Below, one piece after another: positions 122 to 9,284 of a stretch of DNA of 64,000 nucleotides; within the stretch, counting starts at the first letter, position 1; every line of letters starts with the position of its first letter. Under the pieces are notes generated by a model. It made no database searches. It was not told where the DNA came from and saw only the letters and a program-made list of their open reading frames with translations. The translations under genes and the position numbers were made by a program. Source of the stretch: a virus (lineage: Duplodnaviria > Caudoviricetes); IMG/VR virus record IMGVR_UViG_3300020079_000007, positions 32,001 through 96,000 of that record. One strand, written 5' to 3'.

Positions 122-866
122 TTAACTGTCAAAGCCTGTTTCAACTTTTACGAGGTCTTTAGGTGTTTCCTTTTTAAGTTTTTCAAGCTTTTCTTTGTAC
201 ATTTCAATCTTTCTTTCACAGTCCTCAATGTCTGCTTTATTTTGAAATGAAAGCGGCTTGAAAGATTCCCAGAGCGCACAATTTGATTTATAGCTTTTAG
301 GGTACTTTTTGTAAAAAACATCTTCTGCTTCTTTCTGAGTTTTTGCGAGGATTCTTTCTGTTTCTGTTGATCTTGTTACATCGCTTCGCTTATTGTAACG
401 CCCTTGAACTTCTTCGTGTACATACTGAAAATAATATGCATTTAAGAAAAAGTCCTTTTTTGTCAATTCTTCAGCAGCAGCTTTTATAACAGACTTTTCT
501 TCATCTCTTAATTCAGTATAAGGATGATATGTGTGGTCAAGATGATCTGAATTGTGGCGGGCAACAAAAATCATAATACTCTTCACCTGATACAAACTTT
601 TTAGCTCTTCCTTTATAATCTCCTGTGCTTATTATTGCAGCAATCCAACTTATCTGATAAGTCTCTAAATCTTTATTTGTCAAAACACATACACCATCAG
701 AAGAGTTGACATAAAAAATAAGATATGCATAATTACCAAGCATAAGAGAACGGATTACGATTTCGTTAAGAGGGAGCTCTTCTAAATCAGGTATCTCTAA
801 AACAAAATCGAAGTAGTGATACTGTTCTTGATGAAATTGATTTTTACCGTTTAAGAATTGAGCCAT
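122..866 (-). CDS. Hypothetical protein, probably one gene (ORFs 537..866 and 122..595 joined across a +1 T-run frameshift near 566-570)
   Basis: Removing one T from GATTTTTGTT fuses ...EEYYDF to VARHNSDH... Confidence 0.45.
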
Positions 867-880
867 ATAAAAGCCACCAT

Positions 881-914
881 AAAAAGATAGAGGGTTGACA
901 TAACATCAACCCTC
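881..914 (-). terminator. Intrinsic terminator closing the tmRNA/GIY-YIG/ncRNA unit
   Basis: Minus strand GAGGGTTGA-TGTTATG-TCAACCCTC followed by TATCTTTTT. Confidence 0.7.
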
Positions 915-1300
915 GGGGATTAGCGCACCGCGCTCTGTTCCTCCACCACTTGCTTTTTAGGAAAGCAAGAAAACCGAGGGTGTCCCGATTTCTCGAAACA
1001 ACTTATCCACCACCAATTTTTGAGAAAAATTGGAAAACAACAGTCAAGGAGTAACCATCAACTCTTAACTGTAGTGGGAGAGTGTAGCCACTCAACCCCA
1101 CCGCCAGCAGTTTTCTGTCAAAACTGCAAACTCTCAAAGGGATCCTGAACCTTTAAGAAGTTTCACTTTCACTTTCAGTTGTCCGAACTCAACTAAAGCA
1201 GGGAGGGAAACCGAAAGCAATCCCTATGGGGATAATCTCCACCACCAAGTTTCATTGATGTTTTCAGAAGGAAGCTTCAAAAAACTTGGAAACAAATACC
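915..1300 (-). ncRNA. Unclassified structured RNA with four GUUU-[hairpin]-UGGYGG units
   Basis: No ORF; dense hairpins; G-U pairs and a GAAA tetraloop (TGTTTCGA-GAAA-TCGGGACA) work only on the minus strand; ends in a terminator. Confidence 0.65.
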
Positions 1301-1900
1301 TTAAACTTTACATCGTCCTTTGGAAAAACCATCGGGACAAGTTGCGGATTTTACATTTTTGACTCCGTTAGTCCACCAATGTGTTCCAAACTGACTGTTT
1401 GCAGAACCTTTATGTGATTCTGACATTTTCTTTTTTGACTCTTCAGAAAACTTAAAACCAGTTGTTCCTTTATTGCTATGGTGATTTTTATTGCAATAGT
1501 ACCAACCTTTGTTTCTACCTTCTTTATAAGCCTTTTTCATTGCATCACTCAAATGCTTTTTATATGAGTCAGAACGATAATCAATAAATTTTGAAAGATC
1601 TCCGCCATCACCGCCACTCGCAAGATTGTACTCTGCTTTGCCAATAAGCTTTTGACAGGCTATCATACATCTTTCAAAATGATTTATCTGTTCTTTGGTA
1701 AAAAATCCTGAAATAACAATTGTCTTTTCAAAATTTTCCAAACCATATTTTCTTTGAGCCGCATTTATAAGTCTTCCCGAACCATAATAAATGTCTGTCT
1801 CAAAAGTTCTCCCCTTTCTTAGGGTGTGTTGGCCAATGTAAGTTTTTCCATTAACCAAATTTTTAATCTCATAAATATATCTAATTACTTGTGTTTCCAT
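1301..1900 (-). CDS. GIY-YIG homing endonuclease (Seg-like) with NUMOD3 motif
   Basis: YIYEIKNLVNGKTYIGQH, YYGSG, YNLASGG, FSEESKKKMSESHKG, WWTNG; ACTAATT motif just upstream. Confidence 0.9.
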   Translation of the reverse strand: METQVIRYIYEIKNLVNGKTYIGQHTLRKGRTFETDIYYGSGRLINAAQRKYGLENFEKTIVISGFFTKEQINHFERCMIACQKLIGKAEYNLASGGDGGDLSKFIDYRSDSYKKHLSDAMKKAYKEGRNKGWYYCNKNHHSNKGTTGFKFSEESKKKMSESHKGSANSQFGTHWWTNGVKNVKSATCPDGFSKGRCKV

Positions 1901-1925
1901 AAGTAATTAGTATACTTTGGATCTT

Positions 1926-2306
1926 TGGAGCTGGGGAGAATCGAACTCCCGTCCTATGTAACTGACCGCTAACACTTCTTTACAGGCTTAAACTCCATTA
2001 TTTTAGGCTTAAGGAACGGAGCAAAAACTATAGTTCGGTTGTTGATACAATCTCAGAAGCCACCAATAAACCGCTTCTTTTGAAGGTTGCTCTTTTGTGA
2101 TACAACTCCATTTGGAAAGCAATAGCCGTCTGGGTTGCAACTAAGGGAGTTTATCCCCTTAGGTTAGGCAGCGATTCTTGCGAATACGCTGTTGCTCTTG
2201 CGAGCGAAAACTGAACGTTTTGTTGCAGTTATTTTTGTTCGTATTAAGGTCGACACCTTTACCTGATGTTAGAAACCACTTTACAAGTCGAAACCTGTGC
2301 AGCCCC
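1926..2306 (-). ncRNA. ssrA: tmRNA (one-piece), tag ATKRSVFARKSNSVFARIAA
   Basis: 5' GGGGCTGCACAGGTTTCGAC; 3' GACGGGAGTTCGATTCTCCCCAGCTCCA; G3-U70 acceptor stem; ATAACT-GCA resume context; tag ORF 2164..2226 ends AA-stop; CCA not encoded. Confidence 0.95.
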
Positions 2307-2332
2307 TTATATTTAATATATTAACAAGAACT

Positions 2333-2734
2333 TTAGATTAAGTCCAAAATTCTTCTTAATCTTTCTATGTTCAAGTTTGAAAATTGCTTAATCGTATCAA
2401 CATTTTCAATTCCTGTTGAAGCAAGCTTATCAATGTTTTTCAAATCCTCAATCAAGAATCTGATTGCATCTGATACCAAAGCTTTCATATTTGAAGCAAC
2501 AGTCAAATTTCCGTCTTCGATGTATGGAGCCAACTTTGCGTAAGAGTTGTTTACAAACTTTACGAAGTCAGCTGACTGATGATTGTCGTAAACAGCCTCA
2601 CTAAACTTTTGGAGAATTGTTCTGCTCTCTAAGTCAGAACCTTCTGTAAGTTTTATATAGTAGTTGAGGTTTAGTCTTTCACTAAACATAAGAACTTGTA
2701 AAACATAATTCTTCAAAAGTTTTGTATGATCCAT
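2333..2734 (-). CDS. Hypothetical protein
   Basis: 133 aa ORF with AGGTG RBS. Confidence 0.55.
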   Translation of the reverse strand: MDHTKLLKNYVLQVLMFSERLNLNYYIKLTEGSDLESRTILQKFSEAVYDNHQSADFVKFVNNSYAKLAPYIEDGNLTVASNMKALVSDAIRFLIEDLKNIDKLASTGIENVDTIKQFSNLNIERLRRILDLI

Positions 2735-6541: not shown

Positions 6542-6949
6542 TTATATTATCTTTCGTGGGTTATTATAAACAATTATTTTATGTGGCTTGTTTTTTGATT
6601 GACACAATATAATGTCGTGTTTTGTGCCTCTACTTTGGCCGTCCCATAAAATAAGACAGTAATCACATTTGTCTACCATCTCAATGTTACGCTTAAAGCC
6701 TGCCCACGCACCATATTTACCCCATTCAGCAGGAAAATCCCAAGTAAGAACTTTATGTTTATCTGCCCAATCTTTTGCAATCTTATCAACACCACGAGCA
6801 AGGCCTTGAATAATTACAAAATCTCTATCACCTGTCCCATATTTTGCTTCTTGGTCTTTATAAATAAACTTAAGATACTCTTCTATTTGATGCTCAATCC
6901 AAGGCACATCAGTAATTGTCCTTGAACCGCAAACCATTACTCCAACCAT
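6542..6949 (-). CDS. SLOG/YspA-like (DUF2493) protein
   Basis: VCGSR, IIQGLARGVD, AGFKRNIEM, WDGQSRGT. Confidence 0.8.
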   Translation of the reverse strand: MVGVMVCGSRTITDVPWIEHQIEEYLKFIYKDQEAKYGTGDRDFVIIQGLARGVDKIAKDWADKHKVLTWDFPAEWGKYGAWAGFKRNIEMVDKCDYCLILWDGQSRGTKHDIILCQSKNKPHKIIVYNNPRKII

Positions 6950-6957
6950 TGTTCACC

Positions 6958-7383
6958 TTACTTTTTCATATGTTCAAGGATATGGTCAGTAGGCTGCAAT
7001 TCACAAGCTTTAACAACTAAACCATCAGCAGGACAGCCTGCTCTTTCAACTCTTACTTTTGAACTGTCTGCAAAAACGTAATCTTTATTATCAACATCAT
7101 CGTGAACTCTGATTGCTTTCATTCCAATTGAACCTACGAATGTTCCGAAACCTGTCATCGAGTGCAAGTCAGATGTATCTGAACCGTCACGATATACTGA
7201 GTAAAGAACTGGGTCAGGTTTTGCTTTTTGCCCTTCAGGTGAGTCAAATGTTGAGTCAGGACACTCATTAAGAAATGTATCAATTGAAGCAAGTCGCGCT
7301 TGAAGAGAAGCAAAGTCACAAGTTAACAAAAAGTAACCTCTTTGTCCGCCTTCACGACAATTTTCTTTTTTCTTTATAAACAT
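6958..7383 (-). CDS. Family A DNA polymerase, middle fragment (motif A) with Hint-like C-terminal tail
   Basis: GYFLLTCDFASLQARLA (motif A), DLHSMT; tail ...VRVERAG...VVKACELQPTDHI. Confidence 0.8.
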   Translation of the reverse strand: MFIKKKENCREGGQRGYFLLTCDFASLQARLASIDTFLNECPDSTFDSPEGQKAKPDPVLYSVYRDGSDTSDLHSMTGFGTFVGSIGMKAIRVHDDVDNKDYVFADSSKVRVERAGCPADGLVVKACELQPTDHILEHMKK

Positions 7384-7387
7384 ATAT

Positions 7388-7411
7388 TCTCCCTAGCACC
7401 GAAATGTGCCA
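7388..7411 (-). promoter_or_regulatory. Operator-like hairpin abutting the SD of the polymerase middle fragment
   Basis: TGGCAC-ATTTCG-GTGCTA-GGGAGA; covarying twin at 61337-61360. Confidence 0.6.
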
Positions 7412-7442
7412 TAATCTTATATTTTATATTAACTAAATTTTT

Positions 7443-7974: not shown

Positions 7975-8517
7975 ATTGTAAACGGCTCATTTCTCCAATC
8001 CCTTGGAGATATTTTCTTTTCAAGCTTGTCCATTCTCTCAAGAAGTTTTGCAATAATTTCAAGCATAAACCAATCGGGATTCATATTACCATTAGGATGC
8101 GCATTATTTGCATCATCAATAATCTGTTGTGCTTCGTTCAATTTTTCTTGATGATACGCTTCTTCCGCAGCTTTCCTTTCTGCTTCTCGCAATTCTTCAA
8201 TTTTTGGCTCAACGTATTGTTTCCAATTTTTACCGTCAACATCAGGACTTACTCGAGGTCTTCCCATATAGTCGTAATTACTTAAAGCTTCTTTTGCAAA
8301 TTCAAGAGCATCTTCTTCAGTAAAATTGTCATTAAGTTTTCGAAGATAACAATGGCGGCAAAGTCCTTTGAAGCGGTCATTCATTTCCCAAACAAAAGTA
8401 TGTCCTTCTGCTTTATAAAGGTCACCGCATTCTTTACATTTGATTGTTTTTTCTTTTTTCTTCAAAAAGACCAAAGAGATGCTTGTCAACTCCATCAATA
8501 TTTAATTTATAAGCCAT
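7971..8517 (-). CDS. Zn-finger hypothetical protein; true start probably 8517 with an A-run frameshift near 8455
   Basis: CKEC...CRHC; MAYKLNIDGVDKHLFGLFEE joins KEKTIKC if one A is removed. Confidence 0.5.
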
Positions 8518-8576
8518 TACTGTTCCTCTTTTTCTTCAAAGTCCTACTAAATAAAAAATCAAGGAATAGTAGGATT

Positions 8577-9284
8577 ATGAATTATCGCAAATTATATATT
8601 AACATTATAACTTATGCAAAATCACAAAACAGATATAAGGGTGATGGCAATTATTATGAGAGTCATCATATTTTGCCAAAATCTTTATTCCCTCTTTGGA
8701 AAAATCGAAAGTCAAATAAAGTTCTATTAACAGCTCGTGAACATTTCTTTTGTCATCAGTTACTAACAAAAATATACCCTTGCAACGAAATGTTTTTTGC
8801 GTGTCACGCTTTTGTTTCAAGACCAAATGCAGATTATAGAATAACTTCAAGAGAATATGAAAGATTAAAAATTGAATTCGTAAAAAGAATGCGTCCCATA
8901 TCTATAGCGTGCAATACGGGTAGAAAGCATACGCCTGAAGCTATAGAAAAAATAAAAGCTGCAAGACTTAGACAAACACTCTTGGGAAGAACAAATAAAG
9001 GATGTAAGTGGTCAGATGAAGCAAAAGCAAATATGAGCAAAATAGCAAAAGCTCGTATGACTCCAGAGCTTAAAGAAATTATCAAAAACAAAACAAGACT
9101 AACTTGCGCTAAAAGAATTCGTAATATAGAAACTGGAAAAGTGTTTGACTGTATAACAGACGTTAAATTATGGCTTGGTAAAAACGTTCAAGTATCAAAT
9201 ATAGTTGGCAGCATAAAAGGAAGAAAACATTACGCATATAAAAACCCAGATACAGGAGAGCCCCTGCACTGGGAGTATTGTTAA
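8577..9284 (+). CDS. HNH homing endonuclease with NUMOD3/NUMOD1
   Basis: MNYRKLY...YYESHHILPKS...LLTAREHFFCH; own ACTAAAT motif inside a TCCTACTA/TAGTAGGA inverted repeat. Confidence 0.85.
   Translation: MNYRKLYINIITYAKSQNRYKGDGNYYESHHILPKSLFPLWKNRKSNKVLLTAREHFFCHQLLTKIYPCNEMFFACHAFVSRPNADYRITSREYERLKIEFVKRMRPISIACNTGRKHTPEAIEKIKAARLRQTLLGRTNKGCKWSDEAKANMSKIAKARMTPELKEIIKNKTRLTCAKRIRNIETGKVFDCITDVKLWLGKNVQVSNIVGSIKGRKHYAYKNPDTGEPLHWEYC

Follow-up and report, generated by a model that had tools for sequence, protein, structure and literature searches.

How can a phage keep a working DNA polymerase when the gene for it is broken into scattered pieces, and what would hold the parts of the enzyme together? 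The question is raised by a stretch of 64,000 nucleotides (nt; hereafter the window), which represents bases 32001-96000 of the 188,745-bp viral record IMGVR_UViG_3300020079_000007 (36.5% G+C, estimated completeness ~65%). The same DNA was found in many animal faeces as well as in bovine and sheep gut metagenomes, and its source is a large phage from animal guts. The only recognisable DNA polymerase of this phage, of family A (PolA), is encoded by three separate, scattered genes, called here the N, middle and C pieces (Table 1). We consider it probable that they give a working three-polypeptide polymerase, assembled non-covalently through dead modules that resemble the Hint fold of inteins. 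According to tblastn searches of cultured phages, the middle piece matches only at E 0.9 and the C piece matches actinophage PolA only, with 21-24% identity, and no close cultured relative was found.

A preliminary description, made from the sequence alone, had placed motif A and the DLH motif in a minus-strand gene of 141 amino acids (aa), motifs B and C in a plus-strand gene 54 kb away, and an exonuclease-bearing N-terminal part downstream of the C piece, starting at 63242; all three genes are as it had them. In the middle piece, TCDFASLQARL stands at aa 21-31 and DLHSMTG at aa 72-78, followed by a tail that was correctly recognised as non-polymerase and that measures 54 aa (88-141). This piece lies ~54 kb from the C piece on the opposite strand, and the gene order is reversed in this phage. 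The N-piece gene occupies 95242-97302 of the record (63242-65302 in window numbering) and ends 1.3 kb beyond the window. The description had allowed that it might be a complete PolA; it is not, since it stops after PNFQNIP..KKCIDTPP and a 77-aa tail, before motif A, and this tail shares the motif of the middle tail.

With the curated Pfam cut-off of 34.3 bits, the N piece covers positions 3-150 of PF00476 (38 bits) and the C piece positions 204-355 (38.7-39.7 bits; 237-355 in the match of 38.7 bits), and the middle piece alone matches no Pfam family. The PF00476 match of fused N+middle homologues is unbroken over positions 4-197/200 and ends where the tail begins; the middle piece is thus the missing segment of the model (~150-200). 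Hence PF00476 is tiled by the three genes, in which the tails and heads stand as precise insertions. Invariant residues are D23 in motif A, R28, K32 and F36 in motif B, and H207 and D208 in motif C. The N piece carries a 3'-5' exonuclease domain with the Exo I DxE motif (AFDTETNGL; D234, E236 and T237 invariant), and PF01612 was recorded on N-piece homologues. No further match to PF00476, PolB or Pol III alpha was found elsewhere in the 188.7-kb record.

Misassembly, a concern with such a layout, is excluded by independent viral contigs that keep the same three genes (in one 259-kb contig the middle and C genes stand ~107 kb apart) and by contigs from other runs that bridge both ends of the middle gene, one with zero differences and one belonging to a ~97% strain. 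Most of the middle gene is also covered by a contig from a metatranscriptome library. A word search yielded 41 clusters of middle-piece homologues, and an exhaustive profile search yielded 89; a word search for longer homologues gave none, and the fused forms were found only by the exhaustive profile search. Most of these homologues are free-standing proteins of 110-145 aa, and nearly all middle pieces end 58-72 aa after DxH. The N-piece homologues (n=30, 658-711 aa) all have the same end point and carry both PF01612 and PF00476, and identical gene ends occur in >100 homologue clusters. Compared with a 73-77%-identical relative, the ratio of nonsynonymous to synonymous substitution rates (dN/dS) is 0.147 for the middle piece, 0.143 for the C piece and 0.178 for the N piece, and 0.155, 0.148 and 0.084 for the middle tail, C head and N tail, respectively; these ratios are rough, as dS is near saturation. 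All parts (cores, heads and tails) thus appear to be under purifying selection, with dN/dS 0.08-0.19.

The tails at the N/middle joint (site 1) and the middle/C joint (site 2) are homologous. In distant relatives, the N-tail pattern is ..DLYIITSDSGKEYRLAEFE.V.T.RGYV.A.DLTE.D.IIE, and the middle tails, which are conserved down to 42% identity, read ..NKDYVFAP.SK.KV.R.G.E..V.A.EL.PTDHIIE. Profile-profile comparison of the two with hhalign gave Prob 85% (P 6e-6, 38 columns), and the heads of the middle and C pieces have the pattern M.(C)KI.K in common; therefore, the same type of module is present at both joints. The C-piece head is homologous to ..KIVKKVRRELTIHDFLKRKK.. of P0081, a fused middle+C homologue in which it is contiguous with the tail. 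Hidden Markov models of both tails, searched against the six-frame translation of the 188-kb record, found only themselves, and the module is not used elsewhere in it.

The site-2 module was modelled as the contiguous middle/C module of P0081, folded with a 44-row alignment. The model has six strands and a predicted local distance difference test score (pLDDT) of 83.6, with a core >90. In a Foldseek search of the PDB, inteins and Hint domains of Hedgehog proteins made up nearly all of the top ~45 matches (best E 6.8e-3, prob 1.00, ~70 columns). VIA-align, which is independent of Foldseek and was run exhaustively over 48,161 representative chains, returned Hint structures for all of its top 25 (best 5bkh: Z 7.1, root-mean-square deviation (rmsd) 3.1, 62 aligned), with unrelated folds from Z 3.0. 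In BFVD and the ESM Atlas, the module found intein-bearing viral terminases, NrdD, PT-HINT, Hint proteins and a viral PolA cluster. Model residues 16-85 align to residues 52-114 of the Npu DnaE intein (Z 6.0, rmsd 2.2, 62 aligned), and the best Hint alignments span intein residues roughly 45-115, with about half of a full domain absent. Judged from the model, the site-2 module corresponds to the latter half of an N-intein followed by the first strand of a C-intein. The break in the window's chains falls in the loop at model residues ~61-74, as read from alignment ranges only and not from residue-level pairs. This would be about where natural split inteins are split, the Npu DnaE intein being split at 102/103.

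The site-1 module was folded as the window's own N tail without the head strand (pLDDT 85.9), and the likeness is weaker. The top 11 VIA-align matches are all Hint (best 4lx3, Npu IntN: Z 4.7, rmsd 6.3, 54 aligned), and Foldseek gave only weak matches (E of at least 0.4), in which inteins are mixed with noise (gene V protein, prob 0.09). The Hint similarity that had been proposed for the tail is therefore found in the contiguous homologous module and in the window's N tail.

For a three-chain structure prediction, the middle piece was set as the partner of the C piece and of N-piece residues 380-686. The model scored 0.81 (runs 0.81, 0.79 and 0.82) versus 0.03 for the best of 3 controls; the runs have at least 82% of contacts in common, and the partner pLDDT is at least 70. 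In a calibration, 58 of 80 solved complexes attained the score mark, as did 2 of 110 mismatched pairs, which is a rough guide only for three chains and custom alignments. In the model, the strand of motif A (16-20) is paired with the hairpin of motif C (211-216, 248-249), aa 1-13 of the middle head are in contact with residues 605-616, 624-629 and 664-667 of the N piece, and the C head (1-25) contacts the middle-piece tail. The head/tail contacts have no counterpart in solved polymerases, but they are like those of split-intein complexes. The joint envisaged in the preliminary description, a half-Hint completed by a strand from the partner chain and holding non-covalently, is thus supported by fold likeness and by a predicted complex that passes its controls.

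According to this reading, an ancestral phage PolA would have carried small beta-rich, Hint-derived modules at two surface sites flanking motif A: site 1 just before the motif A strand, and site 2 within the fingers, after the DxH helix and before the O-helix (motif B). Stop and start signals would have arisen in the loop of each module, about at the natural split-intein break; the upstream fragments would end in four or five Hint strands (the tail), and the downstream ones would begin with the next strand or strands (the head). Then, head-to-tail strand complementation at both joints, together with the native palm and fingers interfaces, would re-form the enzyme, with one catalytic aspartate contributed by the middle piece (motif A) and the other by the C piece (motif C). 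The genes would be free to drift apart, because nothing would need to be colinear any longer.

Several points weigh against this reading. The best module model was built on P0081, a 30-39%-identical homologue, instead of the window's own chains. The fold searches gave middling Z scores (at most 7.1), and the tool itself warns that Z <8 can be a common arrangement; because of this, the Hint case rests on near-exclusive Hint lists across four libraries and not on the score. Sequence methods see no Hint: Pfam searches of the modules found no Hint family even at E up to 10 with 44 module-bearing sequences, and sequence and profile searches of the PDB with the C piece, the middle piece and the latter's alignment profile A1 yielded no match up to E 10 or E 1. 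A language-model Atlas look-up of the tail was uninformative (scores <= 0.83). The palm contacts in the predicted complex resemble those of solved single-chain PolA, and model memory may be behind that part. In motif A, Gln stands at the position of the Klenow steric-gate Glu (Gln or Glu across the family), and motif C is an invariant HDS versus HDE in Klenow; together with motif B, which has Phe where Klenow has Tyr, these deviations may affect sugar selectivity. Finally, the phage could possess a second polymerase, because the record is only ~65% complete.

The middling Z scores and the absence of a sequence-level Hint signal also speak for the alternative that survives best, namely plain fission within ordinary PolA insertions whose likeness to Hint arose by convergence. 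In that case, palm and fingers would drive assembly and the tails would add little; the largest and most confident predicted contacts are those of the palm sheet, and the split exonuclease/polymerase (exo/pol) PolAs of T7-like cyanophages have been modelled to assemble with plain exposed termini (PMC10201439). We regard this alternative as unlikely, as the match lists are almost purely Hint with four libraries, two aligners and both modules. The module type also occupies two conserved sites (three in the homologue P0114) beside catalytic motifs, which is intein-like behaviour, and appears to be broken about at the natural split-intein position. In addition, tails and heads are constrained as much as the catalytic core or more, above all the N tail.

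A second alternative holds that the modules are functional, extremely reduced split inteins, so that two trans-splicing reactions ligate one covalent PolA and the modules are excised. The Hint-like modules, apparently broken about at the canonical split site, would suit it, as would a near-invariant Cys before the N tail (KKCIDTPP). In the window's close relatives, the middle head reads ..KKEN/C (a slash marks the module boundary), which resembles an Asn/+1 Cys junction, and removal from KK/C to N/C would give a PNFQNIP-to-motif-A spacing within one residue of Klenow (our own count). We nevertheless judge it highly improbable. The modules comprise only about half a Hint, roughly 55-90 aa compared with ~130 aa for the smallest known inteins, and lack the block A half and the terminal strand. 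No conserved N-terminal nucleophile (block A) is present at the module starts ..TPP/ADLY.. and ..GS/IGMKAIRV..; no conserved Thr/His of the TxxH motif (block B) is present in the structurally equivalent stretches (N tail, LAEFELVYT; middle tail, SKVRVER); and site 2 ends in ..TVHD/F, ..TVYD/F or ..DVFD/F instead of a terminal Asn followed by a nucleophile. The missing Cys1 block, TxxH and terminal His-Asn had been pointed out for the middle/C junction, and all three are indeed absent. The same description had offered MFIKKKEN-C as a possible ultra-short functional C-intein at the middle head; this is rejected, since half of the Hint fold is missing and the EN/C pair of close relatives gives way in more distant middle pieces to KKFG/I, NHNS/V or EKDS/V, with non-nucleophilic residues. 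The Pfam intein and Hint models PF14890 and PF07591 find nothing in the phage record. Splicing thus appears very unlikely, because the module is half a fold without TxxH, terminal His-Asn or +1 nucleophile, and because the fused P0081 keeps it in-chain.

A third alternative, in which the three genes are decaying relics of a disrupted polymerase gene and a host or other polymerase replicates the phage, is hardly credible despite the scattered genes, the ~65% complete record and the departures of motifs A and C from the Klenow consensus, given the low dN/dS across all pieces, the identical gene ends in >100 homologue clusters, the intact reading frames with promoter-like motifs and ribosome-binding sites, the retained catalytic Asp residues, motif B Arg/Lys and exonuclease DxE, and the lack of any other polymerase in the record.

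How the split arose can be read from relatives. A distant relative (locus L012) has the N, middle and C genes side by side and colinear: TAA ends the N gene, and the ATG of the middle gene follows 2 nt later in another frame; TAA also ends the middle gene, and the ATG of the C gene comes 9 nt later, with an AAGGA ribosome-binding site over the stop. From this arrangement, with its TAA stops and ribosome-binding sites, it follows that the split arose through in-place gene fission; in the window phage, the genes have been scattered beyond fission itself. A recoded or read-through stop at the joints is ruled out by the TAA stops, the ribosome-binding site and the differing N and middle frames of L012. 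An intron between the pieces was also considered; an Rfam scan of the window finds none, in line with the earlier remark that no intron-like RNA is seen.

The middle/C break is the widespread one, and the N/middle break is limited to the window's subclade. Locus L020 has a fused N+middle gene with the same tail and the C gene directly after it. In locus L018, a similarly fused gene with the same tail is separated by 3.2 kb from the C gene, across an IS200/IS605 element (795-2437, minus strand; Y1 TnpA E 5.5e-41, TnpB/OrfB E 4.8e-23). Among the fused N+middle proteins, some keep the canonical spacing of 26 aa and lack a module in front of motif A, and others carry a contiguous 60-100-aa module there. 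The fused middle+C proteins P0081 and P0087 have tail and head contiguous, with no nucleophile after ..IHD/F; as they keep both in-chain, the module is presumably resident and not excised. P0074 (491 aa) is a permuted fusion, in which the C piece with its N-terminal head is followed by the middle piece with its C-terminal tail. P0114 (198 aa) is a free-standing middle piece with a third ~60-aa module of the V.V.R.G..V...A..L...D.I type between motif A and DxH, and this third insertion site suggests that the module has been mobile. Taken as a whole, we lean somewhat towards a natural non-splicing half-Hint that was fixed as a protein clip at two sites (three in one relative), while the chains were re-fused, permuted and scattered.

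Previous studies described fractured genes and the cyanobacterial DnaE, in which the split inteins are complete and active and a homing endonuclease gene often lies between the halves (Dassa et al. 2009, PMC2677866). As in those systems, an essential replication enzyme is made here from separate genes, complementary Hint-like parts stand at the upstream end and the downstream start, the break appears to fall at about the same place, and the insertion sites are beside catalytic motifs. Unlike them, the module here is about half a Hint without Cys1 block, TxxH, terminal Asn or +1 nucleophile, and no ligation is expected; two joints occur in one enzyme, and a fused relative keeps the module in-chain. 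No homing endonuclease gene lies between the pieces, the spacers being 2-12 nt in L012 and L020 and IS200/IS605 tnpA+tnpB in L018. The present case would thus be like a split-intein pair up to the docking step and lacks every catalytic feature of an intein.

The PolA of T7-like cyanophages (S-SBP1-like), with exo and pol domains split by fission, was presented by Czernecki et al. (2023, PMC10201439) as the first split in a PolA, and no other PolA split was found in the literature. It is likewise a phage family A polymerase that underwent fission, with separately translated and presumably interacting chains. However, the cut in that polymerase separates the exo domain from the pol domain, leaving two neighbouring genes with plain exposed termini, whereas here the cuts lie within the polymerase domain on both sides of motif A, the active site would be shared between chains, and three scattered genes carry Hint-like docking modules at the joints. 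A phage replicative polymerase in two genes is also known from the split gp43 of the T4-like phage Aeh1 and its relatives, some with intervening mobile DNA (PMC2677866), and from the Aes123 PolB1 split intein (PDB 9hth). Those polymerases belong to family B and consist of two pieces, either without intein parts or with a complete active split intein.

Engineered splicing-dead split inteins serve as affinity or dimerisation tags, since the halves bind tightly without catalysis. They are man-made point mutants of full size; the modules described here would be a natural, truncated and evolutionarily fixed form. No example of natural inactive, remnant or domesticated inteins acting as binding modules was found in the literature. 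If the reading of domesticated Hint halves is true, this would be, in nature, the first instance in which intein halves are retained to bind rather than to splice, an end-point usually assumed not to exist, in which splicing and half of the fold are lost and the remainder is kept because the halves hold a protein together. It would also offer ready-made orthogonal minimal heterodimerisation tags (~50 + ~10-20 aa), the two homologous but distinct tail/head pairs being candidates for small orthogonal docking tags. The enzyme itself would be a family A polymerase cut on both sides of motif A, with its catalytic aspartates on separate chains, in a layout apparently selected across a wide gut-phage clade. 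For annotation, the 110-145-aa middle pieces are nameless; because they get no Pfam match, such phages would be scored as lacking an intact polymerase.

Table 1. Features of the split polymerase and neighbouring elements (window numbering; ORF, open reading frame)
Feature	Position	Strand	Remarks
Middle piece, 141 aa	6958..7383	-	ORF: head strand, motif A, DLH helix, Hint-like tail
Head of middle piece, aa 1-13, MFIKKKENCREGG	7345..7383	-	Strand predicted to dock on N-piece tail
Motif A (DFASLQARL)	7291..7317	-	Includes catalytic Asp; D23 invariant in middle-piece alignment A1
Middle-piece tail, aa 88-141	6961..7122	-	N-side part of truncated Hint-like module at middle/C junction
Promoter-like octamer GTTAATAT, middle piece	7426..7433	-	43 nt upstream of ATG
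Leader hairpin of middle piece	7394..7411	-	6-bp stem, ATTTCG loop; abuts GGGAGA ribosome-binding site
C piece, 350 aa	61365..62417	+	Head strands, motif B, motif C, C-terminal extension; Pfam PF00476, alignments A2/A5
Head of C piece, aa 1-22, MLTIDKSTELTVHDFIKNKEYK	61365..61430	+	C-side part of Hint-like module
Motif B of C piece, WRTVAKTENFGLLFG	61443-61487	+	
Motif C of C piece, NNIHDSLD	61974-61997	+	
Promoter-like octamer GTTAATAT, C piece	61318..61325	+	Upstream of gene
Leader hairpin of C piece	61337..61354	+	6-bp stem, AGTTCG loop; abuts GGGAGA ribosome-binding site
Two small ORFs, 80 aa and 201 aa	62410..63242	+	Between C and N pieces; the latter Lys/Glu-rich
201-aa ORF	62637-63242	+	Stop overlaps N-piece ATG
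N piece, 686 aa	63242..64000 (window part)	+	First 253 aa inside window; exonuclease, thumb, PNFQNIP, tail
N-piece tail, 77 aa	about 65069-65299 (past window)	+	Hint-like
YspA/SLOG-family gene	6542-6949	-	Directly downstream of middle piece
310-aa ORF	8352-9284	+	~1 kb from middle piece
Transfer-messenger RNA (tmRNA)	1925-2306	-	Rfam RF00023

The preliminary description had given each piece its own GTTAAT motif and ribosome-binding site. The hexamer GTTAAT alone is not enriched in the window (46 found versus 52.9 +/- 6.9 expected); what stands of the claim is a longer octamer, GTTAATAT, which is enriched (21 found versus 2.97 +/- 2.0 expected) and precedes the middle and C pieces. The N piece is without it. 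Because the ATG of the N piece overlaps the stop of the upstream ORF, and only GTTAATTT, lying inside that ORF, is found upstream, the N piece is probably co-transcribed with it. The leaders of the middle and C pieces have a common hairpin with an (A/G)TTCG-type loop, whose stems differ (TGGCAC/GTGCTA versus TAAGGC/GCCTTA) and still pair. The hairpin also precedes the C piece in the relatives L007 and L009, with the stem GTGGC/GCCAC, which represents compensatory stem changes, and it is not present in L005 and L008. The middle and C genes thus appear to share regulation signals, namely the enriched octamer and the leader hairpin, and the latter is possibly a common translational operator.

Between the C and N pieces, the 201-aa ORF is Lys/Glu-rich in its N-terminal half and matches no Pfam family; the order of C piece, Lys/Glu-rich ORF and N piece is kept in four relatives (L006-L009). 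Downstream of the middle piece, the YspA/SLOG-family gene (PF10686, E 4e-11) has a neighbourhood conserved in L005, the 77% relative, and almost conserved in L004, and a contig from an RNA library covers both genes. The 310-aa ORF on the other side shows an HNH-like pattern (H..H) and matches NUMOD3 weakly (E 0.0014), and it looks like a free-standing homing endonuclease. The tmRNA of the phage is full length (88.2 bits) and is preceded at 2318-2325 by a promoter-like motif, GTTAATAT..TATAAG, as for the polymerase pieces.

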